NCBI GenBank assembly: GCA_965200875.1
Contig: OZ241456.1
Coordinates: forward strand, 288,001-352,000
Source of the DNA: Bdellovibrionales bacterium
Lineage (GTDB): Bacteria; Bdellovibrionota; Bdellovibrionia; Bdellovibrionales; UBA1609
Direction of reading: 5' to 3'
DNA: 64,000 nt
Shown: positions 30,856 through 43,262 of the stretch, in pieces
How positions within the stretch are numbered: the stretch's first letter is position 1
How the letters are laid out: the number at the start of each line of letters is the position of its first letter
The notes under the pieces: generated by a model
The model's input: only the letters and a program-made list of their open reading frames with translations
What the model was told of the DNA's origin: nothing
Database searches by the model: none
Position numbers and translations under genes: made by a program

Positions 30856-32277
30856 ATGAATTGGTTCCATAAAATTTACAAGCTGGGTTTAAAAACCTTT
30901 GAAGAGGATTTTTGGGTAGCTTTAATCACTATCCTTTTACCCGGGCTTTTATTCTTAGGCTTAACCGGTTGTGCTTCAACAGCCCTTAAAAGGCAACATT
31001 GCGAGTCTTTGAATGTGTATAAACGAGGATATACAGATGGGTCAAAAGGGCTTCCTTCCCGATTTTTTGAATCTTACAGCCAGGAATGTGGTGAGTATGT
31101 GGAGGAGGTCATGCAAAAAGAGGTGGAATACGAAAAAGGCTGGAAAAAAGCGGTGAATGATTTTTGCACGAAAAAAAACGGTCATGAGTTGGGCTTAAAA
31201 GGAGGCCAGTATCACAATGTGTGCCCTAAGGAGATTGAATCGGAATTTTTAGCAGGATACAAAGAGGGGGACAGGAAATGTCTTTATGAAGAAGGGTATC
31301 AGGCCGCCATGAGTGGTAAAGAGGAGTCTTTTGCGCAAAGTGTTTGTAAGAAACTGGAAGGGGAATTGAGTGAAAGAGAATACCGGGCTGGTCACTTGGC
31401 GGGAATAAAGGTTTTTTGTGTTTATAAATCCGGTTATTCCCTGGGTTTAAAAGGGGAAAAATATCCAAATGTGTGTACTGAAAAACCCAAGTTTTTTAAA
31501 GGCTATAGAGCTGGAGACAGAAAGTGCCTTTACAAATCCGGTTATGAGCAAGCCATGAAGGATAAGCATGCCCATTATGATCAAAGTGCTTGTTCAAAAT
31601 CAGAGGGAAAACGTAGTAACAAAGAATACAAGAAAGGACGTAGAGCAGGGTTAAGGGTTTTTTGTGGCTATAAAAACGGCTACCAGCTGGGGTTAAAAGG
31701 CACTTCTTATCAGACTATATGTTCTAAAAAGACCAGATTTTTTAAAGGCTACAGAGCAGGAGACAGGAAATGTCTTTACACTGTTGGCTATGATCACGCA
31801 GTTAAAGGTATGTCCAGTGCTTTTGAGAAAAGCCGTTGTAAGCGTTTAAGCGGAAATAAAAAATCATACAGAGCAGGTCGCGTGGCGGGCGTAAAAAAGT
31901 TTTGCACTTATAAAAATGGTTTTAACTATGGTTTGAAGGGTTATCAGTATAACAATATATGCCCCAAGAAAATGGAAGAAAATTTTTTTAAAGGTTACAC
32001 TTTAGGTTATCAGGAGTACAGGGCGGATAAACGAAAAGAGGAAATTTTAAATATAGAAAGAGCACGTATAAGAGCTGAGGAAATATCCAGACAGGAGGCC
32101 TTGGCCGTGGAACGGGAGCGTATAGCTGTGGAACGGGAGCGTGTGGCTGTGGAACGGGAGCGCGCAGATGCAGAACGAGAGCGTGTAGCCGTGGAACGGG
32201 AGCGTGCAGATGCAGAAGAAAGAGCCCGACAGGAAGCTTTGGAGCGACAAAGAAAATTTTATCGAAAGAGAAGATAG
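30856..32277 (+). CDS. Lipoprotein with tandem DUF2799-like Cys/Gly/Tyr modules and an AVERER coiled-coil tail
   Basis: AGGAGG RBS; LTGC lipobox; ~4 repeats of FC.YK.GY.LGLKG..Y..VC..FFKGYRAGDRKCLY. Confidence 0.75.
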   Translation: MNWFHKIYKLGLKTFEEDFWVALITILLPGLLFLGLTGCASTALKRQHCESLNVYKRGYTDGSKGLPSRFFESYSQECGEYVEEVMQKEVEYEKGWKKAVNDFCTKKNGHELGLKGGQYHNVCPKEIESEFLAGYKEGDRKCLYEEGYQAAMSGKEESFAQSVCKKLEGELSEREYRAGHLAGIKVFCVYKSGYSLGLKGEKYPNVCTEKPKFFKGYRAGDRKCLYKSGYEQAMKDKHAHYDQSACSKSEGKRSNKEYKKGRRAGLRVFCGYKNGYQLGLKGTSYQTICSKKTRFFKGYRAGDRKCLYTVGYDHAVKGMSSAFEKSRCKRLSGNKKSYRAGRVAGVKKFCTYKNGFNYGLKGYQYNNICPKKMEENFFKGYTLGYQEYRADKRKEEILNIERARIRAEEISRQEALAVERERIAVERERVAVERERADAERERVAVERERADAEERARQEALERQRKFYRKRR

Positions 32278-32446: not shown

Positions 32447-34258
32447 ATGGATCTGGTATCGCTGATAATAACTGCCACCTTTATTGTTATTATCATTTAT
32501 ATAACTGTTTTTGGTTTTTGGCCTCTTAATAAGAAGTTGGGCTTTTTCAGTATTTTGTCTTTTTGGAGAGAAACTAAGAAAATTAAAAAAAACCTTGAAG
32601 AGGCTATCGAAAAACTTCCTGATAAAGATCATAGAAATGAATTTACTCGCAGATATCAAAGAGAAATTGATCCATATTTTAGTGAACAAGGGGCTTTTTT
32701 CACTCATCTTTGGATAGAGTTTAAAGAACAGCTTATAGAGCCAGGTGAAGAAGAAGCTGTTTTTCAAAACAGTATGCGACCTAAGGAGTTTTTTATTTTT
32801 GATGATTTGCTGAAAAAACAAAATCTCAATTTTAAACTGATTGAATCCATGCCAGGTATCCTCGTGGGGCTTGGGGTTTTAGGAACTTTTACAGGGCTTT
32901 CAATATCTATTCTGCGTGCTATGCCTAAATTACCTAGTCAGGGGGATATGGGTAATATAAGTGAAGCTGTTAATTTATTAATTTCAGGTGCTGGAGTAGC
33001 TTTTTTCACTTCTGTGGTAGGTCTGCTGGCTAGTTTAATATTTAATTTGATTTCAGATAAAAGGGTCTCGCTCTTACAAAGTCTTTTAAATAAATTCAAT
33101 TCTCGATTGGAAAAAAGTCTTAAGTTTGTAACAGAAGAGCATTTGTTGGTCGAGTACTTAAAGGAAGTAAAACAACAGGGAAAACATTTGGCAAATATGG
33201 ATGAAAAACTAGCTTTAAAAATTGGAGACAGAATTGAAGAAAGCGTAAAATCAATGGGAAATGCCATTCATAGTGCCATCTCAGAAAGCCATCAAAATAT
33301 TTCGGAGAGATTTTTTGAGGATATATCCAGTAAGATGACTGATGGAATGGGAGATTTTTCCACTAAACAAAGAGAAAACCTAGAAAAAACCCTTAGCTCT
33401 ATACAAAATAATATTCCACCTCTTATTTCTCGGTTGGAGCAATCTCAAAAACAAAACGAAGAGACGACAAAAAATCTTATAAATCAAATGAGCGTGGTTA
33501 ATATAAAGAGCCAGGAAAAGATTAATGAATCTCTTGCAGAAACCACCCGCCAGATGAAAAGTGACTTTTCAGAAATCACAAAAAATCTAAAAGAAGGCAT
33601 GAGTCAAACTCTTTCGGATTCTTCAGGTGAGCTAAAAACTCTTATATCCAGCCTTGGAAACATCAGTAAAGGACTTATCTCTAACTTGGGAAGCGTCAAT
33701 AAAGATATTTTGGAGAAAACAACCAAGGCGCAGGCTCTGTATAAAGAGCATTTTGATGAAACTTTGAAACACTTAAGTTCTTTCGCGGATCGCCTCGAAA
33801 GAGCAATCTCAGAAGTAAATACTGTAACCACAGACAATATCAAATCCGCCGGAGAAAAATTTAATCAAGTGGTGGAAAGTCAAACACATATTATGGAGCA
33901 AAATCAAAAGTATATTCACTCTTTAAGTCAGCTCTCAGAAAAACTGGAATCTGTATCCCTTTCTGTTTCGGACATGACCCATAAAATGCCTGAGTATATG
34001 CAACAAATAAACAGCTCCAATGAATATCTGAAAGAAATATGGCAAGGATATGAAAAAAGATTTGAAGCCGTTGATGAAAAAACCGCAACACTTTTTGAAA
34101 ATGTAAAAGCCGGTTTGGAGTCTATTTCTACACAGAGTATGGAGCATGTCGGGAAATTGAATCAGCAGTTTTCTAATATATCAAAACATGTTGCCAGTAT
34201 GGTTGACGACTTAAAAGAGGGTGTTGAGGAATTTGGAGAGACTATTAGTAAATTATGA
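32447..34258 (+). CDS. zorA: Zorya ZorA (MotA-like TM domain plus long helical tail)
   Basis: HLW.EF.EQL, MPGILVGLGVLGTFTGL, AFFTSVVGL, long heptad-rich tail; first of a four-gene operon. Confidence 0.92.
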   Translation: MDLVSLIITATFIVIIIYITVFGFWPLNKKLGFFSILSFWRETKKIKKNLEEAIEKLPDKDHRNEFTRRYQREIDPYFSEQGAFFTHLWIEFKEQLIEPGEEEAVFQNSMRPKEFFIFDDLLKKQNLNFKLIESMPGILVGLGVLGTFTGLSISILRAMPKLPSQGDMGNISEAVNLLISGAGVAFFTSVVGLLASLIFNLISDKRVSLLQSLLNKFNSRLEKSLKFVTEEHLLVEYLKEVKQQGKHLANMDEKLALKIGDRIEESVKSMGNAIHSAISESHQNISERFFEDISSKMTDGMGDFSTKQRENLEKTLSSIQNNIPPLISRLEQSQKQNEETTKNLINQMSVVNIKSQEKINESLAETTRQMKSDFSEITKNLKEGMSQTLSDSSGELKTLISSLGNISKGLISNLGSVNKDILEKTTKAQALYKEHFDETLKHLSSFADRLERAISEVNTVTTDNIKSAGEKFNQVVESQTHIMEQNQKYIHSLSQLSEKLESVSLSVSDMTHKMPEYMQQINSSNEYLKEIWQGYEKRFEAVDEKTATLFENVKAGLESISTQSMEHVGKLNQQFSNISKHVASMVDDLKEGVEEFGETISKL

Positions 34259-34356
34259 ATAAATAAGTGTTTCTGATATATACTCGGTTCTGAATAAATC
34301 AGTTTTTACTATTCATCATTTCCGCTCAGGATTTGATTTTTTAAAGAGAGCTTTAT

Positions 34357-35205
34357 ATGAAAAAAAATTCCCATTATGCCCTTTCCATCAGTGACTTGAT
34401 AATGGGGCTTTTGTTTATTTTTATACTAATTTTAATGAAGTTTATGTTGGAATATCAAAGTAAAAAAGAAAATCTTTTTCAACCTTTGGCGGAAAGAGAT
34501 AAGCTTCTCGAAGAACTGAAAAAAGAAATGAAGAAAAAGAATATACAAGTTGAAATTGACAAAGAAAATGGAGTGTTAAAATTATCCGGCACTCATTATT
34601 TTAATAAGGGTAAATACAGTTTGAGTGATACCGGAAAAAATACCTTTAAGAAAATAAAAAAAATATTTGATAAGTTATTAATATGTTATTCTGCTCTTGA
34701 GCATAAAAAAACAAAAAACCGGTGGCCTTCTTCCAAAGTCAGAAACAAAAAAAGTAATTTAAAGCAATGGCAAAGTTACTGTAAGAAAAAATATCCAAAA
34801 AAATCAGCTTTGATTGACTCTATTTTAATTGAAGGTCACGCGGACTCCACACCGATCAGTCAATATTCCAAAGGGATAAAAACCAATCTGGATTTGGCTG
34901 TAAAAAGATCACAGACAGTATTTGTTTTTTTGTTGGATTACAAAGAGGAAACCAAAGGGTATGATCCTGTGAAAGGTCTAATACATACGAAAGAATCTGG
35001 CAATCATTTATATGCTTTGGTCAATAAACAAGGAAAACCTTTATTTGGAGTGACCTCTTATGGTAATTTAAGAAGAAGTGAGCTTCTGAAAAATAAAGGA
35101 AATCAAGATCAGCAAAAGTCAGACCGGCGGGTTGATATACGATTTATCATGTCTCAACCAGAAGATTTAAGTGAGCAATTAAAAAAACCGTTAAAATCGG
35201 ATTAA
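34357..35205 (+). CDS. zorB: Zorya ZorB (MotB/OmpA-like)
   Basis: SISDLIMGLLFIFIL TM with conserved Asp; IEGHADSTP, NLDLA..RS, SYG, DRRVDIRF. Confidence 0.92.
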   Translation: MKKNSHYALSISDLIMGLLFIFILILMKFMLEYQSKKENLFQPLAERDKLLEELKKEMKKKNIQVEIDKENGVLKLSGTHYFNKGKYSLSDTGKNTFKKIKKIFDKLLICYSALEHKKTKNRWPSSKVRNKKSNLKQWQSYCKKKYPKKSALIDSILIEGHADSTPISQYSKGIKTNLDLAVKRSQTVFVFLLDYKEETKGYDPVKGLIHTKESGNHLYALVNKQGKPLFGVTSYGNLRRSELLKNKGNQDQQKSDRRVDIRFIMSQPEDLSEQLKKPLKSD

Positions 35206-35239
35206 TATGCCCAGTTTATTTATCACTGAAAGGTAACTG

Positions 35240-36712
35240 ATGAAATACTTTCTGCAGGATTTTTTTAAAGAAAATTTTAAAGCAAAGCTTTTTGATAGGA
35301 AATGGGAAAAATATCAAAAGAGTATAGAAAAATATCAAAACCAAATAAAAAGAAATATTAAAAGACTTGGAAACTTGGAAGATATGAAATCCCCTGACTC
35401 TCAGAGTTTAAAAATCATTTACGAGGAAAGCCAGAAGTATTGGAAGCAACATAAAACCTTTAAAGGAATGTCGAGCAGAAAATTAAGAGAATTGTTTTTT
35501 ATTTTATTCCCAAACCCAAATGATGGGGTTCGGCAAGGTATATATGAAAGTCCAGAGCAATTTGATGATTTTTTGAATATTCAAAAAAACAAGCAATCAG
35601 CTTTAAGAAGGCTTATGTCAGTATTGCTTCATTTTTATCCTGAGGAAAGCAGTTTGTTGTTTAAAAGGTTGGACAAGGTGTATAGGGCTTTAGAGAAAAA
35701 TAAAAAAAGAAATGCACTTTTGATTACTGCAAATAAAAAATTCAAGCTGATTGAAAAATCAGGCCCTGAAATCATCGCGAGACAAATATTGAACCCAAAC
35801 AAAAATATGGATGATCTCCTTCAGGAGATTTGGATAAAAGAAAGAGATTTATCTCATGGTATAGGAAAAAGCATTTTGAAAGAGCTTTGTCAGCTGGCTT
35901 GGCATAATATTGCAAATGAAGCTATATTGGATCGTTTCTTGGAGTATTTATCTGGAGAGAGCATAAACTCTCCTTCCGGTTTTTCTGTTCAGTCTTTCTC
36001 GGAAAATGAAATATCTGGCAGATATAATAACATTAAGCCTGTTGTTTCCACTTTATTGCTTCCTTTTGAAAACAAAATACCTGCACCTTCTTTTAAGAAA
36101 AAAATCACTTGGTTTTTGGATAAACATATCGGAGATCCGCGCTTTCAGTCTGAGAAGTGGATAGCTTTGTCAAAAGAAAAGGAGATTTTTCAAAGCTGGA
36201 AAGTGGGGGAAACCATACAGGATTTTTTTGCTCTTCTGGATTATACTGCTAAAACAAATCCCACTTCTGATAGAATGTGGCCTTTAAGAAAAAAATTTAT
36301 AGAGTTTTATTTGAACGCTGGCCATATAGTATCTGCTTGGATTGTCTTGGGGAAAGAGGCTTACAAGAATCGTTTGGAATTTTTGAAAGAAGGTGTTAAT
36401 GATTATGGAACTATCACCCGTGGGGCCAACCCTATTCATTCGGTTCTGCTTTTTCAGATAAGCGATCTTGTGCTTTCTGAATGGAACTATAATGGGAAAG
36501 TAAGAATTTGGAATAAAGCTCATCCACAAGTACCGAGGTTTTATAAAAAACAATATGAAAGAGAAGGCTTGGTTAAAGACCCTGAACAGGAGATAATTCA
36601 TCATCATTCTGAAAAATATTACTGGCAAAAAAATCTGAGTGATTATATTGAAAAATATACCGGCATTCCCTGTCCAGAAGATTTACAAAAAGAAATTGAT
36701 AAATTTAGATAA
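35240..36712 (+). CDS. zorC: Zorya ZorC (EH-signature domain)
   Basis: IGDPR..W, MW..RKKF...Y, AWIVLG, SEWNYNGKVRIW, HH..YYWQ; position between zorB and the SNF2 gene. Confidence 0.85.
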   Translation: MKYFLQDFFKENFKAKLFDRKWEKYQKSIEKYQNQIKRNIKRLGNLEDMKSPDSQSLKIIYEESQKYWKQHKTFKGMSSRKLRELFFILFPNPNDGVRQGIYESPEQFDDFLNIQKNKQSALRRLMSVLLHFYPEESSLLFKRLDKVYRALEKNKKRNALLITANKKFKLIEKSGPEIIARQILNPNKNMDDLLQEIWIKERDLSHGIGKSILKELCQLAWHNIANEAILDRFLEYLSGESINSPSGFSVQSFSENEISGRYNNIKPVVSTLLLPFENKIPAPSFKKKITWFLDKHIGDPRFQSEKWIALSKEKEIFQSWKVGETIQDFFALLDYTAKTNPTSDRMWPLRKKFIEFYLNAGHIVSAWIVLGKEAYKNRLEFLKEGVNDYGTITRGANPIHSVLLFQISDLVLSEWNYNGKVRIWNKAHPQVPRFYKKQYEREGLVKDPEQEIIHHHSEKYYWQKNLSDYIEKYTGIPCPEDLQKEIDKFR

Positions 36713-36731
36713 GAAAGCAATGGAGATATTT

Positions 36732-39700
36732 ATGACCTATGAAGTAAAAGAAGGATATATAGTGATTTATTTCCAAGAGCTGACAGAGGATATTAAAAGT
36801 GTGTTCAGTAGAGCCTCAGCAGAAGTCCATACAGAGAATCAAAAAGCCTTGATAAAAAATGAACACATTGCGGATTTGAATATCCATGAAATTAAAAAAC
36901 TGGGCCTGCCTCCCGTATATCCTCATCGTTTGAGAGTAAACACAAGAGGTGTGCCCACTACTCCAGCTTTTTCTTATGAAGTGAAGTATTTGGATGAGAA
37001 GTCAAGGCAATTTTATCAAGTAAAAAGAACAGGCCCTGTTTTAAATTTAGATGGCCAGTTATTCACTCTGACGAATCCTCATTTTAGCTTTTTGGAAAAT
37101 TTGCAAAAGTTATCCTCTAAGGTTAAAACTCCAGGTGCGCGTTTAAAGATTTGGTCTCAGATCATTAAGCATATTCCTAAAGAAGCTTTGGATAACAAAG
37201 AGCTTTTGAATATTTGTTTTGTAAAGGCGGATCGTTTTTGTGTGGATCGAAAAAAATTATCAGATAATGACTTTCATATTACACCAGAGTTGATTTATAG
37301 TGATGAGGAAAATAACGAAGAAAAATCTTTTACCCATCAACTTTCCAGTGGAATCTCTCAGGATTTTAAAGAGGCTTTTTTAAATATAAACAGTGTGGAT
37401 CCTTATTATAAAGTAGGTAACCATTATATACAGGTGTCAGAACCTTTAAGGGCTTGCCTGAAGATTATCAAAAAAATAAACAGAGAGCCGTTGGCAAAGA
37501 AAAAAGCTTTTTATTTAAACCCTATGGAAAGAATTAAATCAGAATTGCCAAATAATCTGTCAGAAAAATTGCTGGAAAATATTTTTTTTGAAACTGAGCA
37601 GTTTAAAAGCTCTCGCATTTCTCATCTTGGAAAATGGGTGCCAAAAGTGGGAATTTACATTGACCCGGATAATAAAAACCCCTGGTTTCCAAAAGATGAT
37701 ATTGCCGTAAAAATAAAAGACAGCTTATTTCATTTCGCGCCGGATGATATGGACACTTTACTTAAAGATCTTGAAAATGCAAAAAAAGAAGGAAAGGATA
37801 ATGTTTATTATAAAGATCAGGTGTTGCCGGTGGATGATGCTGTTATTTCTGAATTAAAAAATGTGAAAGATAACATTGTTAAAGAATCCCAAAAAATTAT
37901 TTGTTCATCTGAGGAGAAAGAAGAGAAACAAAAAATCTCCAAACTGGTGGCTATCATTAAGGACAATATTGATCATCTGGAATATCAATCTGTTTTGAAA
38001 CCTCGACTTGATCTTGCAAAAAATATTCCTCAAGAGCTAAAAAGTAAATTCATTAAATACCCGCATCAAAAAGAGGGTGTGTTGTGGCTGGAGGAAAATT
38101 TTATACAAGGTAGGCCCGGTGCGCTTTTAGCAGATGACATGGGTCTTGGAAAAACCTTTCAAGCCCTATCTTTTTTATATTGGTATAAGAAAAATTATGT
38201 AACAAAAAGAAAGCCTGTTTTAATTGTTGCTCCAACCGGGCTTTTGAAAAACTGGCAGGATGAACATGAAATACATTTATTTGAACATGGAGGCATAGGC
38301 AGGAAATACAAAGCGTATGGTGAATCATTCCGGAAAGCCCGAAAAGAAAGTGAATTACAAGTCATTAAGGAGATGGAAAAATCAGACTGGGTTTTAACCA
38401 CTTATGAGGCTCTAAGAGATCATCATACAAAATTTTTTATAAAAATTTCTTGGGGTGTTTTAATATTTGATGAAATACAAAAAATCAAAAACCCTAACTC
38501 ATTGATGACAGATGCTTCCAAAGCTCTTGAAAGTGACTTTTCCATTGGTCTTACAGGCACTCCACTTGAAAACAGCTTTATTGATTTATGGTGTGTATCA
38601 GACTGCTTATATCCAAAAATTCTTGGTTTGTTAAAAGATTTTCATGGTAAATATATAAAAAATAAGCCAGACAATTCTGCCCGGGAAATTCAAAAAAAAT
38701 TATTTCAAAAAAATCCTCCCTTTATATTACGCAGGGTTAAAAAAGATATATTAAAAGATTTACCGGAAAGAAAAGTCATTCCGAAAAAACTGGATATGAC
38801 AGATGTGCAAAAGGATATATATTCAGAAGTAATAAGGAAAGCAAAAAATCGAGAATATACCAACAGCCTTCAAGCTCTTTCTTTGCTGAAGAGGTTTTCC
38901 ATTTATGTTCAGGATTGTTTTGAAGGAACTGATGATGAGTTTATTGATTCCAGCGCGAAGTTAAAATTTCTTTTTAAGACTTTGGAAGATATAAAAAATA
39001 AAAAAGAGAAAGTATTGATTTGTGTGGAAAACAGAAATTTACAGAAAAAAATAAAAAGTATTTGTGATGCGAAATGGAGTCTCAATGTAAAAATTATCAA
39101 TGGGGATATGCCAGGTGAGAGACGAAAAAGCACTGTGGATCAATTTGGTAAGAAGGATGGATTTAATATTATGATTATTTCACCCAGAGCAGGTGGAGTG
39201 GGCCTTAACATAGTGTCTGCAAATCACATTGTTCACTTGGAAAGATGGTGGAATCCGGCAGTGGAAGATCAGAGCAATGATCGTATTTTCAGAATTGGGC
39301 AAAAAAAACCGGTGTTTGTTTATTATCCTTTGGCGGTTCATCCTGATTATCGGGATGAAAGTTTTGATATAGTTCTGAACCGCCTTTTGGAAAATAAAAA
39401 ACAAATGAGAGAGCAGACATTAATCCCTTCAGAACCCGATAAGCAGGAGCAAAAAGAGTTTTACCGAACTGTTGTCTCAGGTGAAGAAATGTATACTGAT
39501 GGTACAGAGTCTTTTTATAAAACTGAAGAATGGAAGGCTTTACGGAGACAGGTGTTTCAGAAATATCCGCCTCTTTGTGGTCGTTGTGGCAATAAAAATA
39601 ATTTGGATGTAGATCATGTTAAGCCTCGGTCTAGGTATCCTGAGCTGGAACTGAACTTTGATAACTTGCAAATTTTATGCAGAGACTGCAATCTGCTTAA

Positions 39701-39743
39701 AGGAACCAAAGATTCCCAGTCCTGGGACTTCAGAGATAAATAG
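36732..39743 (+). CDS. zorD: Zorya ZorD-like SNF2 ATPase with C-terminal HNH endonuclease
   Basis: ALLADDMGLGKT, FDEIQKIKN, LTGTPLEN, AGGVGLN, RWWNPAVEDQ..DRIFRIGQ; tail CGRCG..LDVDHVKP..NLQILCRDCNLLKG; GGAG RBS before ATG 36732. Confidence 0.9.
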   Translation: MTYEVKEGYIVIYFQELTEDIKSVFSRASAEVHTENQKALIKNEHIADLNIHEIKKLGLPPVYPHRLRVNTRGVPTTPAFSYEVKYLDEKSRQFYQVKRTGPVLNLDGQLFTLTNPHFSFLENLQKLSSKVKTPGARLKIWSQIIKHIPKEALDNKELLNICFVKADRFCVDRKKLSDNDFHITPELIYSDEENNEEKSFTHQLSSGISQDFKEAFLNINSVDPYYKVGNHYIQVSEPLRACLKIIKKINREPLAKKKAFYLNPMERIKSELPNNLSEKLLENIFFETEQFKSSRISHLGKWVPKVGIYIDPDNKNPWFPKDDIAVKIKDSLFHFAPDDMDTLLKDLENAKKEGKDNVYYKDQVLPVDDAVISELKNVKDNIVKESQKIICSSEEKEEKQKISKLVAIIKDNIDHLEYQSVLKPRLDLAKNIPQELKSKFIKYPHQKEGVLWLEENFIQGRPGALLADDMGLGKTFQALSFLYWYKKNYVTKRKPVLIVAPTGLLKNWQDEHEIHLFEHGGIGRKYKAYGESFRKARKESELQVIKEMEKSDWVLTTYEALRDHHTKFFIKISWGVLIFDEIQKIKNPNSLMTDASKALESDFSIGLTGTPLENSFIDLWCVSDCLYPKILGLLKDFHGKYIKNKPDNSAREIQKKLFQKNPPFILRRVKKDILKDLPERKVIPKKLDMTDVQKDIYSEVIRKAKNREYTNSLQALSLLKRFSIYVQDCFEGTDDEFIDSSAKLKFLFKTLEDIKNKKEKVLICVENRNLQKKIKSICDAKWSLNVKIINGDMPGERRKSTVDQFGKKDGFNIMIISPRAGGVGLNIVSANHIVHLERWWNPAVEDQSNDRIFRIGQKKPVFVYYPLAVHPDYRDESFDIVLNRLLENKKQMREQTLIPSEPDKQEQKEFYRTVVSGEEMYTDGTESFYKTEEWKALRRQVFQKYPPLCGRCGNKNNLDVDHVKPRSRYPELELNFDNLQILCRDCNLLKGTKDSQSWDFRDK

Positions 39744-39889
39744 TCGGGCGTGAAAAAGGTGTGATATTTTTCTGGATTCCCGTTTTCACGGGACTGAAAG
39801 CCAACAACTTGGCTTTCAGTTTCCAAGGGAGATCTTTCTCTTTAACAGGTAAGTAACCTGTTTTATCAGAGGTTTTTCACGGGCCATTA
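39741..39889. mobile_element. MITE-like element family B, copy 1
   Basis: Ends TAGTCGGGCGTGAAAAAGG and GGTTTTTCACGGGCCATTA form an imperfect IR; inner hairpins TCCCGT-TTTC-ACGGGA and ACTGAAAGCCAA-CAAC-TTGGCTTTCAGT. Confidence 0.65.
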
Positions 39890-39948
39890 TAGTAGTTTCT
39901 TAAGTTTTTTTTTGCGGAAGGTTGTTTCCTGAACCAATAAGAGCTTTT

Positions 39949-41419
39949 TTAATTTTTTAAAAAATATAGGGGAATATGAGTAAGTAATTGAAGCTTGCTG
40001 TCTGTGGTGTCATATAACACATCCAATAAAGGCATTGAATGTTTTGTAGTTCCAATTCTCACTAACCCCAAGTGAAGGCTCATTGGTCGCACCTGTTCCC
40101 AAAGATGCAATCTGAGTGTGCTTAGCACTGGTGGATTTCCAGCTAGTAGGTGATCTAATTCATTATGCACATAATTCGTCAACTTGATAAATCTCGTGCT
40201 CAAAGATAGTGGGGTGCCATATATTTTACGAAGAGGCATTGCTACTTTTGATAAGCCTGTAAAATACAGCTGATCAGGAGAGGCCCTTAATTCATTATGA
40301 ACAGCTACAACCAACCTCTCCGGGATTATTTGATAGCTGTCGCCATCAATATTTTTTATAGACTTATTATATTCAGGAGCTTTTGGGTAAAGTACAGGGT
40401 AATGAATTTTATTATCCAGTGATTTTTGTATTTCAACTTTAAATCGAGTGTTTGGTCCGATGTTATCATCATGTATATATAATATTTCACTTTCAGAATC
40501 TGCTAAAGTGATCGGCTTTGATGGATCAGATTGTTTGAGTGGTGTTTCCCTGAAGCCTACTACGCATACAGCATGATCTCCTTGGTATTGTTGGTTGACT
40601 TTTAGTTTTCCTAAAATAATTACTGGATAACCAGAGCGAATATAGGAGGCGATTGCACTCATAAAGTGTTCTTTTGGAGAAAAAAGTTTTTGGGTGGTGT
40701 TATAGAAACCAGTTTGGATCATAGGAGAAAGTTTTAGCTCTTTTATAGCTTCATACAGTTGAACTTCAGTTAAACCCTTTGATGGAAAAGTTTTTTCTCC
40801 GAAAGAGGCTATCTTATGTGCGGCTTTGGTAATTTCCGCAGTAGTGGGTATAGAATGAAAATCATCAAAAGCGGAAGATTGTAGTGCCGACCACAAAGCG
40901 ATAGTGACGCAGGCCCCTGCGCCTGCATCTTGTTGTTGCCATGCCAAACCTTTTATATGTAATTCAATCCCAGCAACATGACTTTTATAGTTTCTTTGTA
41001 CTGTTATACGCGAGCTGTTTTGTTCTCTATTTTTATACCATTTTAAAACTGTTTTTCCCAAACGAGCTTGTATAGGTCTTAAGACACAAAATCCCAGATA
41101 GCTTTTAGTTAAGATATCTATAGCATTTAAGTCGCCCCCAGTGGCTTTTGTAAAAAATTCACGGGTTATATTTAGGTTGGAAAAAAAAATGAACTCTTCG
41201 ACAAATATTTTTATATCCGAAAGCACTGGTCGAATAAAACTCTGAAAACTCAGACAAGTAATCTCGATCAAAATAATTTGGTTCTATCAGAATTTTTTTA
41301 GCTGAAAGTCCTTTCAGATAATTGATCAAATAATTCCCTTGCTGGGAGTTTTTGATCTTAGATAAAATATTACTTTCTGTTTCAAAGTTTGAAAATTCTA
41401 GGGGTTTTGGAGTGTGCAT
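39949..41419 (-). pseudogene. Papain-like Cys-His-Asp protein split by a 1-nt frameshift in a T9 run (489 aa if repaired)
   Basis: ORF 41159..41419 (..CRRVHFF) joins ORF 39949..41271 (FFSNLN..) if the A9 at 41181-41189 is A8; QQQDAGAGAC, GDHAVCVVG, HDDNIGP. Confidence 0.75.
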
Positions 41420-41850: not shown

Positions 41851-43020
41851 TTGTATGTCGTCAAAAAGTCGTGCAAAATGACGATTATGTATGCAAGATC
41901 TTTAAAACCTCCTAATCAATCTTTTTTTCTGTTAGGCCCTCGTGGAGTCGGAAAAAGTACATGGCTCAATCAGCACTTTAAGCAAGCTCAATTTATTAAT
42001 TTGTTGGATGACGCACTTTATCAAAATTATTTGGAGGATATTTCTCTATTTTACGAAACGCTTAAAGTGCTTAAACCTCGTTCATGGGTTGTGGTGGATG
42101 AAATTCAACGTATGCCGACTTTATTAAATGCCGTTCACCGCCTTATAGAAGAAAAAAAACTTCGGTTTGCTTTAACAGGATCCAGTGCCAGAAAATTAAG
42201 AAAATCAGGTGTTAATTTATTGGCCGGGCGCGCTCATCAGTATTTTATGTATCCTTTAACCCCTAAAGAGCTGGCTCAGGATTTTAATTTTAATCAGCTT
42301 CTTTGCTATGGTTCCGTACCTTTGATTCAAGTGCAGAAAAACAAAAAAGCCACTCTTCAGGCTTATTCTCAAATGTATCTTAAAGAGGAAATCAAATCGG
42401 AGGCTTTGGTTAGGAATTTATCGGGGTTTGCCCGATTTCTTCCCGTGTTGGCACTTTATCATGGACAAGTTCTTAATATTTCAGCAGCAGCGCGTGATGC
42501 AGGGGTATCACGAACCACTATTAATGGTTTTTTAGATATTTTGGAGGACACTTTGCTGGTCAATAAACTGCCAGCTTACGAAGCTCGTTTGCGGGTCAGG
42601 GAAAAAAAACACCCTAAAATATATTGGATAGATCCTGGAATCGTTAGGGCGTGTAAAAAACAGACAGGTCCTGTTGTTGCAGAAGAGAAGGGAAGCTTAT
42701 TTGAAGGTTATATGTATATGTGCCTAAAAATGAAAATGGAATATGAAAATGAATATGACGAAATCAATTACTGGTCTTCTGGTGGTTCTGAAAATGTTGA
42801 AGTAGATTTTCTGCTAAGGATGGGGCGTGAGTTTACCGCCATAGAAGTAAAAACCGGAAAAAAAGTTAAGGCAGAAGATTTAAAAGGGCTTAAAGCTCTG
42901 GCAGATTTAAAGGGTGTAAAAAGAAGAATTTTTGTTTATCAAGGGCCTTTCCTTATGGAAAAAGAAGGAATTGAAATTATGCCTTTTCCTGTGTTCTGTA
43001 AAAAGTTTTTAACAGTTTGA
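41851..43020 (+). CDS. AAA+ ATPase with C-terminal DUF4143 (PD-(D/E)xK-like) domain
   Basis: LLGPRGVGKST, VVDEIQR, LTGSSARKL..NLLAGRA, PKIYWIDPG, EVDFL..AIEVK. Confidence 0.9.
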   Translation: MYVVKKSCKMTIMYARSLKPPNQSFFLLGPRGVGKSTWLNQHFKQAQFINLLDDALYQNYLEDISLFYETLKVLKPRSWVVVDEIQRMPTLLNAVHRLIEEKKLRFALTGSSARKLRKSGVNLLAGRAHQYFMYPLTPKELAQDFNFNQLLCYGSVPLIQVQKNKKATLQAYSQMYLKEEIKSEALVRNLSGFARFLPVLALYHGQVLNISAAARDAGVSRTTINGFLDILEDTLLVNKLPAYEARLRVREKKHPKIYWIDPGIVRACKKQTGPVVAEEKGSLFEGYMYMCLKMKMEYENEYDEINYWSSGGSENVEVDFLLRMGREFTAIEVKTGKKVKAEDLKGLKALADLKGVKRRIFVYQGPFLMEKEGIEIMPFPVFCKKFLTV

Positions 43021-43117: not shown

Positions 43118-43262
43118 TAGTACCCCGTGATAAAGTATGTTTTCTTAAGGAAAAAGAATGAAACATCTCCCTAAAACTCAACAAGATTCCCATTTTCACG
43201 GGACTGAAAAGCCAACAACTTTGCTTTTCAGCTGTATAAAAAAGGTTTTTTACGGGCCAGTA
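43118..43262. mobile_element. MITE-like element family B, copy 2
   Basis: TAGTACCCCGTGATAAAG..GGTTTTTTACGGGCCAGTA; core GATTCCCATTTTCACGGGACTGAAAAGCCAACAACTTTGCTTTTCAG nearly identical to copy 1. Confidence 0.65.

Follow-up and report, generated by a model that had tools for sequence, protein, structure and literature searches.

A type I Zorya operon with an HNH-tipped ZorD

The DNA stretch analyzed here (64,000 nucleotides, referred to as the window) is part of contig OZ241456.1 from a Bdellovibrionales bacterium, whose genome, G000, comprises 1.87 Mb with 37% GC; other G-numbers denote the genomes of relatives. Four co-oriented open reading frames (ORFs) on the plus strand were assigned to zorA (32447-34258), zorB (34357-35205), zorC (35240-36712) and zorD (36639-39743). 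The best PADLOC models were all of type I, namely ZorA1 (E = 2.6e-41), ZorB1 (4.1e-52), ZorC1 (1.4e-78) and ZorD1 (2.1e-244), and the genes are co-located in the canonical type I order. Judged from its sequence, this locus represents a type I Zorya anti-phage operon with all four genes present, and protection against phages is predicted. A preliminary description of this DNA had proposed the order zorA-zorB-zorC-SNF2 with intact motifs, which was borne out by these type I best scores and by the motif alignments.

The zorD frame encodes 1034 amino acids if read from the GTG at 36639, from which all ZorD residues are numbered here. Translation probably starts at the ATG at 36732 (1003 amino acids), because a GGAG motif lies 6 nt upstream and the relatives start there. 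The protein consists of an N-terminal domain, an SNF2 ATPase and an HNH domain. The ATPase core (38064-39299, plus strand) was delimited by Pfam (PF00176 and PF00271; SNF2-rel_dom at residues 476-743, Helicase_C at 774-887), by alignment to the E. coli protein EcZorD (PDB entry 8QY7) and by invariant columns. It contains the Walker A motif GLGKT (nt 38142), the Walker B motif DEIQ (nt 38469; DEAQ in EcZorD) and motif VI RIFRIGQ (nt 39282), and E542 corresponds to E651 of EcZorD in the alignment to 8QY7, the closest PDB entry both by sequence and by Foldseek. Hence, the protein shows the ZorD-type N-terminal domain and the intact SNF2 ATPase of a type I ZorD. It scored only 383 of the 1500 bits required by the NCBIfam ZorD equivalog, as expected for a divergent member. 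The PADLOC ZorD1 match spans residues 50-960, and since the ZorD1 profiles end at residues 910-975, the HNH domain lies outside of them.

This beta-beta-alpha-metal domain occupies the last ~76 amino acids (39513-39740, plus strand) and was recognized by Pfam, PHROG 144, PDB entry 5H0M and the full-length structure model. Pfam HNH (PF01844) matched residues 980-1023 above its cut-off (41.8 versus 21.4 bits; E = 1.2e-10), behind SNF2-rel_dom and Helicase_C, and the motifs that had been quoted for a C-terminal HNH are all present: FYKTEEW (nt 39513), CGRC (39576), DHVKP (39612), NLQILC (39663) and CRDCN (39678). The domain has the [CxxC]2 zinc finger, with the ligands C980/C983 and C1014/C1017, and the DH..N..H/N residues typical of HNH nucleases, the catalytic positions being D992-H993, N1009 and N1018 (H-N-N form). 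Its nearest PDB sequence is 5H0M, the HNH protein of phage GVE2 (E = 8.6e-6), whose H93 and N109 align with H993 and N1009; mutating these residues of the phage enzyme is described to lower nicking by 94% and 60%, respectively (PMC5304195). An AlphaFold2 model of ZorD, built from a 120-sequence alignment, reached a mean pLDDT (predicted local distance difference test) value of 88.5, with 86-95 over the HNH domain, which is modeled as a helix, two short strands and a helix; the match lists of the structure search were filled by the ATPase. A single-sequence model of the isolated domain, with a low pLDDT of 63, retrieved the GVE2 HNH (5H0O) at rank 2 with a Z score of only 2.8.

The ZorD-HNH fusion is real and conserved. 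The full motif CxxC..DH..NLQ.LCxxCN is kept in all 66 HNH-tipped homologues, some of which are only 33% identical overall to this ZorD. Compared to G081, the HNH domain shows a nonsynonymous divergence (dN) of 0.13 at a synonymous divergence (dS) of 1.0, similar to the values for the ATPase (0.11 and 1.17). For three other relatives, the proportions of nonsynonymous (pN) and synonymous (pS) differences were 0.18-0.24 and 0.81-0.89, with saturated synonymous sites. The HNH domain is under purifying selection. A Logan contig of sequencing run X1 covers positions 38135-39801, including the junction between ATPase and HNH, with 0 differences. X1 is possibly the source sample itself, so that independent support for the fusion has to come from the same fusion in other genomes. 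An assembly artefact or chance read-through was ruled out because, of the 120 best homologues, 53 show the same fusion, and so do nine further genomic copies that were inspected.

The remaining three proteins likewise have the features of their type I counterparts. ZorA (603 amino acids; PADLOC ZorA1, PDB matches 8VVN and 8QYD) combines a MotA-like membrane head with a long coiled-coil tail. Counted from the alignment of the PDB match, its residues E91/E94, P136, T147 and S189 correspond to E86/E89, P136, T147 and S184 of EcZorA, of which E86/E89 are described as calcium ligands and P136, T147 and S184 as the ion filter (Hu et al., PMC11946911). ZorB (282 amino acids; PADLOC ZorB1; E = 4.4e-15 against 8VVN_B) has a single transmembrane helix with the conserved aspartate D13 (nt 34393), followed by an OmpA-type peptidoglycan-binding domain, which matched PF00691 (E = 4e-5) under Pfam's cut-off. 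ZorC (490 amino acids; PADLOC ZorC1) is a predicted DNA-binding protein with an EH signature (Pfam EH_Signature, E = 1e-29); its E414/H454 align with E400/H443 of a close homologue of E. coli type, which is not the exact published protein. As far as can be judged from these alignments, all four proteins of the operon keep the residues that are essential in the E. coli type I system (EcZorI).

An Mrr-like nuclease is not universal in type I ZorD

The preliminary description had assumed that characterized type I ZorD proteins end in an Mrr-like nuclease. This does not apply to the structurally characterized CHARACTERISED ZorD (EcZorD), which has no Mrr domain: the cryo-EM structure (8QY7) ends where the HNH domain described here begins. 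EcZorD (1080 amino acids) aligns by sequence up to its residue 1067, entirely before the HNH, and structurally its residues 21-1079 match residues 4-921 of our model, just before that domain; the high root-mean-square deviation reflects a different domain arrangement. An E. coli plasmid protein named ZorD by NCBI has 58 residues past motif VI, compared to 146 here. Neither "Mrr" nor "HNH" occurs in the main text of Hu et al. (PMC11946911) or in its preprint. The assumption is valid for the PADLOC label and for numerous homologues, but does not extend to the protein that was tested. Mrr (PF04471) is absent from the ZorD studied here, which carries the HNH instead, and because EcZorD likewise lacks it, we did not treat Mrr as a defining feature of type I.

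Distribution and phylogeny of ZorD tails

Among the 120 best homologues of ZorD residues 560-1034, 53 carry an HNH, 28 an Mrr and 39 no tail, a search that favors the HNH class because the query held the HNH. For a broader survey, a profile of 30 HNH-tipped proteins was compared with 1.84 billion representatives and the best 150 were classified, with five rows reassigned by eye; this profile, too, is biased towards HNH tails, and most of the proteins come without genomic context. No tail was found in 68 representatives, Mrr in 57, HNH in 12, a tail with the motif DPY...HDR in nine and another tail in one, while three were truncated. Nine of the 11 best named loci have zorB and/or zorC nearby; the other two begin at the edge of the locus. 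ZorD tails are modular. The earlier view that an HNH stands where many ZorD proteins carry Mrr was confirmed by this survey, but Mrr is not universal. A widespread annotation is thereby in need of correction: ZorD tails occur in four states, of which Mrr is only one, and ~45% of the nearest ZorD families are tail-less.

The DPY...HDR-tailed proteins (P0225, P0229, P0232, P0244, P0249, P0262, P0264, P0265 and P0267; loci L006, L009 and L011) form one clade, and that of L009 (Erythrobacter) is encoded in a zorABC operon. Their tail resembles MIT_C (PLD-like), a similarity that serves as no more than a lead (Pfam E = 0.0028 for one of three; Atlas 0.89-0.92).

Phylogenetic trees were calculated from the ATPase core alone, with the tail removed. 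In a FastTree analysis of 157 rows (10 rows were skipped for motif mismatch and three truncated ones left out), all 27 HNH-tipped rows fell into one clade (support 0.95). An IQ-TREE analysis of 57 rows (LG+G4 without mixture, rooted with an E. coli-type ZorD) likewise placed 23 of 23 HNH-tipped rows in one clade, with an ultrafast bootstrap of 99 and an SH-like approximate likelihood ratio of 98. Its sister is a tail-less protein (100/94), and the Mrr and tail-less states change about 10 times each on this tree. A single origin of the HNH-tipped ATPase core is therefore supported. The HNH may have replaced Mrr directly or may have been added after Mrr was lost; the tree fits both.

One named member of the HNH-tipped clade is from Halobacteriovorax sp. 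(WP_419172625.1), a genus of the Bdellovibrionota, which makes this phylum the probable one of the host of the operon as well. Within the genus of G000, the full-length gene is present in four of 15 genomes and 3' stubs in two. At the level of the order, 19 of 301 genomes match a ZorD1 model at E = 1e-100 or better, and nine of the 13 inspected encode an HNH-tipped ZorD (10 copies). Nine of these copies belong to complete zorABCD-HNH operons in eight genomes (G000, G081, G044, G102, G415, G480, G494 and, twice, G490), with differing flanking genes; the tenth is interrupted by a contig end. Tail-less SNF2 proteins were found in G009, G049, G512 and G558, and G527 also has a copy with a tail that looks Mrr-like by eye. 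In a sample of the phylum, only two of 401 genomes (G000 and G415) matched through the HNH, indicating that the variant is patchy and uncommon. When genome contigs were scanned with exact-pattern seeds, 20 of the 80 resulting loci were inspected and none of these was HNH-tipped; likewise, none of the best 30 of 36 plasmid records reaches into the HNH.

Some tail-less genes have unusual neighbors. In L002 (10416-14291, Polyangiaceae), a tail-less zorD is followed by two genes that appear McrB- and McrC-like by eye, possibly supplying a nuclease in trans; such genes were not seen after the other tail-less ZorDs inspected. In L149 (977-8280) and L150 (7945-14779), a tail-less SNF2 gene lies upstream of ZorA- and ZorB-like genes (by eye), giving the order zorD-zorA-zorB.

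Genomic surroundings of the operon

Scans of the operon for promoters, terminators and repeats stayed at chance level (24 promoters versus 25.4 expected, six terminators versus 5.0), and no RNA data were found among the sequencing runs listed as containing the sequence. A close strain is present in run X3, labeled as a sponge metagenome, with matching pieces that reach 631 bases and differ at few positions. Seven bases past the zorD stop codon, a ~140-base repeat with inverted ends (GTGAAAAA...TTTTTCAC) begins, which occupies positions 39750-39890 and 43185-43227. It has 89 mostly partial BLAST matches in the genome and resembles a miniature inverted-repeat transposable element or a repetitive extragenic palindromic element.

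Directly upstream of zorA, positions 30856-32277 encode a 473-amino-acid protein with four DUF2799 repeats; a 21-base tandem repeat is located within this region (32089-32217), and the gene was not seen adjoining zorA in relatives. Downstream of the operon lie an ORF of 440 amino acids without a Pfam or PADLOC match (39949-41271, minus strand) and an AAA_14-DUF4143 gene (41851-43020, plus strand; PADLOC PDC-S01, E = 5e-55). Palindromes are rare throughout G000, with observed-to-expected ratios of 0.21 for ACGT, 0.06 for GAGCTC, 0.07 for CATATG, 0.10 for CCATGG, 0.13 for ATGCAT and 0.14 for GAATTC, which suggests many restriction systems, present or past.

Origin of the HNH domain

The HNH scored best against the PHROG 144 family of phage HNH endonucleases (E = 8.4e-21). 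The domain matches 111 phage records with up to 49% identity and is 43-53% identical to free HNH proteins of 145-240 amino acids from metagenomes. In PADLOC, the top 25 of its 59 matches are PtuB and PDC-M01B. These similarities make a phage or a mobile free HNH gene the likely donor. Orphan HNH frames in G094 and G082 were considered as donors and rejected; because they keep the C-terminal helix of ZorD in front of the HNH, they represent zorD remnants. A further orphan HNH in G085 retains the last 69 residues only and could be either donor or remnant. None of these three genomes has a ZorC1 match.

Orphan 3' stubs of HNH-tipped zorD in genomes without a ZorC1 match are located at L100:6274-6936, L101:6594-6917 and L102:11822-12130. 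Two of them adjoin restriction-modification-like genes, and the L100 stub is a 219-amino-acid ORF with a new N-terminus.

A second Zorya locus outside the window (G000:C1:1728290-1731057, L105) is of type II, with the non-canonical order zorA-zorE-zorB and a short ZorA of 360 amino acids. Four tandem, nearly identical genes for small coiled-coil proteins lie close to it (G000:C1:1722108-1724404).

Predicted function of the HNH-tipped ZorD

Taken together, we consider it probable from the sequence comparisons that the locus is an HNH-tipped type I Zorya whose intact HNH, likely captured from a free phage-type gene, is the predicted DNA-cutting part. By homology with the E. coli system, a ZorA5B2 ion-driven motor would be switched on where the phage injects, the ZorA tail would recruit the DNA-binding ZorC together with ZorD, and ZorD would be freed from autoinhibition by its own N-terminal domain. 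Specific to this variant, the SNF2 ATPase may engage or track double-stranded DNA, while the tethered zinc-finger HNH would nick it repeatedly near the entry site and thereby destroy the incoming phage genome. A phage HNH domain of 76 amino acids has been described as a portable nickase with a preference for short sites when fused to another DNA-binding protein (PMC3592412). For EcZorD, the nuclease activity was mapped to a fragment containing only the SNF2 ATPase (residues 503-1080) and was lost in the variants D730A/E731A and E651A, all of which affect the ATP site, and the Hu et al. passages name no catalytic site for DNA cutting (PMC11946911). The HNH likely supplies, as predicted from its residues, the cutting site for which EcZorD has no recognizable domain.

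Several observations weigh against this view. Without any tail domain, EcZorD provides defence, and the half of it that contains the ATPase degrades DNA in vitro (PMC11946911). Since EcZorD functions and 68 of 150 representatives are tail-less, a nuclease in the tail cannot be a general requirement. At its third catalytic position, the HNH has Asn instead of the His of the GVE2 enzyme; the GVE2 paper mentions other HNHs with an Asn form (PMC5304195). One of the two G490 copies has an internal deletion that removes ~270 residues of the N-terminal domain. As for the origin, a tree of the HNH alone was too weak to identify the donor, to prove the direction of transfer or to rule out that the HNH was replaced more than once.

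Since a tail-less ZorD works, the strongest alternative is an HNH that is active but auxiliary: the ZorD core would do the essential job, and the tail would widen the phage range or speed up degradation. We regard this as unlikely, if less so than the other alternatives. The functional EcZorD, the frequency of tail-less representatives and the tail-less sister of the HNH clade all agree with it. However, no loss of the tail was seen within the sampled rows of the HNH clade, while Mrr and tail-less states alternate about 10 times, a contrast that is in part inherent in the search, whose profile derived from HNH-tipped proteins. Rather improbable as its main role, though compatible with and not exclusive of a DNA-cutting HNH that acts on phage genomes, is that the HNH, once activated, introduces nicks mainly into the host chromosome and thus confers population-level (abortive) immunity, as reported for ZorE. 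Host single-strand breaks are described for ZorE and also for over-expressed Zorya I or ZorCD (Mariano et al., PMC11890865), and small HNH nickases read 3-7 bp (PMC3592412), so that sites should exist in host DNA; but for type I, Hu et al. describe a defence that acts directly and leaves the cells alive, with ZorD recruited locally (PMC11946911).

Two further readings concern the kind of HNH. The tail could be a modification-dependent, McrA-like restriction module that gives this Zorya a preference for modified phage DNA. The name "5-methylcytosine-specific restriction endonuclease McrA" is indeed attached to 10 of the 74 free HNH relatives listed and to two of the 30 phage matches listed; but these names are automatic and belong to proteins of 145-240 amino acids, compared to a tail of only ~76, and Pfam found no modification-reading domain, whereas McrA-type enzymes read DNA modifications via a separate domain. 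This reading is very unlikely. Even less credible is the type I/II hybrid suggested in the preliminary description, in which the tail would be a type II ZorE HNH fused to ZorD. The type II locus of G000 would offer a potential donor, but the ZorE models (NCBIfam and PDLC00642, the sole PADLOC ZorE model run) match only that locus and not the ZorD tail, which is 21-23% identical to the ZorE of its own genome, far below its identity to free HNHs, and has PtuB and PDC-M01B as its top PADLOC matches. The operon also lacks the make-up of type II, a stand-alone ZorE without ZorC and ZorD: both of the latter are present here, and the ZorE models found no match. The HNH-tipped Zorya is neither a new system nor a type I/II hybrid.

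Beyond the assignment of the HNH as the predicted DNA-cutting part, a bolder generalization, which we offer tentatively and would rate at somewhat below even chances, is that ZorD acts as a DNA motor whose socket accepts interchangeable nucleases, and that in this clade a single capture of a phage-type HNH nickase provided what became the obligatory module for cutting, which would define an undescribed type I subtype.

Comparison with known systems

The ZorD-HNH architecture is a real, conserved and apparently undescribed variant of type I Zorya. No such fusion was found in the Zorya papers and reviews searched; figures, including Supplementary Fig. 1b of PMC11890865, as well as Doron et al. 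2018, bioRxiv supplements and subscription papers, lay outside this search. The passages that link an HNH to Zorya do so via type II ZorE only (PMC8565338, PMC10952713, PMC11232893, PMC12278908, PMC12458937, PMC12904381, PMC12939059, PMC13434031, 10.1101/2024.10.26.620412, 10.64898/2026.05.12.724681, 10.1101/2023.12.18.572097).

The exchange of nuclease domains on defence helicases has been recognized before, which limits the novelty. HmaA (SNF2 plus NOV_C, PMC11232893) and the YprA family (PMC12458937) are defence helicases with a helicase-nuclease fusion, and the C-terminal nuclease of the latter varies (PLD, Vsr or none), so that the principle is not new; the variable tails in these passages are not described for ZorD, and none is an HNH. 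Type II ZorE also is an HNH effector recruited by ZorAB and acts as a nickase (Mariano et al. 2025, PMC11890865), but it is a stand-alone protein of ~280-360 amino acids from a different HNH subfamily, in a system without ATPase or ZorC. The closest relatives of the tail are the small zinc-finger HNHs of phages (GVE2, 5H0M; PHROG 144) and PtuB of Septu and retron systems, which have the same [CxxC]2 and DH..N core but are free proteins of 130-240 amino acids without a motor; GVE2 has the H-N-H form, in contrast to H-N-N here.

Mrr-tipped ZorD proteins have the N-terminal domain and SNF2 core in common with the protein described here, and the nuclease is joined at the same position. Their tail is a PD-(D/E)XK-type Mrr (PF04471) instead of an HNH, two nucleases that are unrelated in fold and chemistry. 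The PADLOC label for ZorD, "SWI2/SNF2 helicase, Mrr-like nuclease", refers to this form, which a passage in PMC11890865 credits to Doron et al. 2018.

EcZorI (Hu et al., Nature 2025, PMC11946911; 8QY7/8QYC, ZorAB 8QYD) has the same zorABCD order, and the ZorA filter and calcium ligands, the ZorB Asp, the ZorC EH pair and the ZorD Walker A/B motifs with the E651 equivalent are conserved. The two systems differ in the length of ZorA (603 amino acids here versus 729) and of ZorC, which is ~70 C-terminal residues shorter than the E. coli type. Above all, EcZorD stops just past the ATPase without a named nuclease domain, whereas the ZorD described here continues for ~86 residues that contain the HNH. 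The predicted cutting site of HNH-tipped ZorD can be mutated apart from the ATPase, so that one experiment could tell apart what the motor and what the nuclease contribute to type I Zorya. If ZorD indeed is a motor with a nuclease socket, comparing it to the tail-less protein of E. coli would reveal whether the SNF2 core cuts DNA on its own and, if so, at which site.

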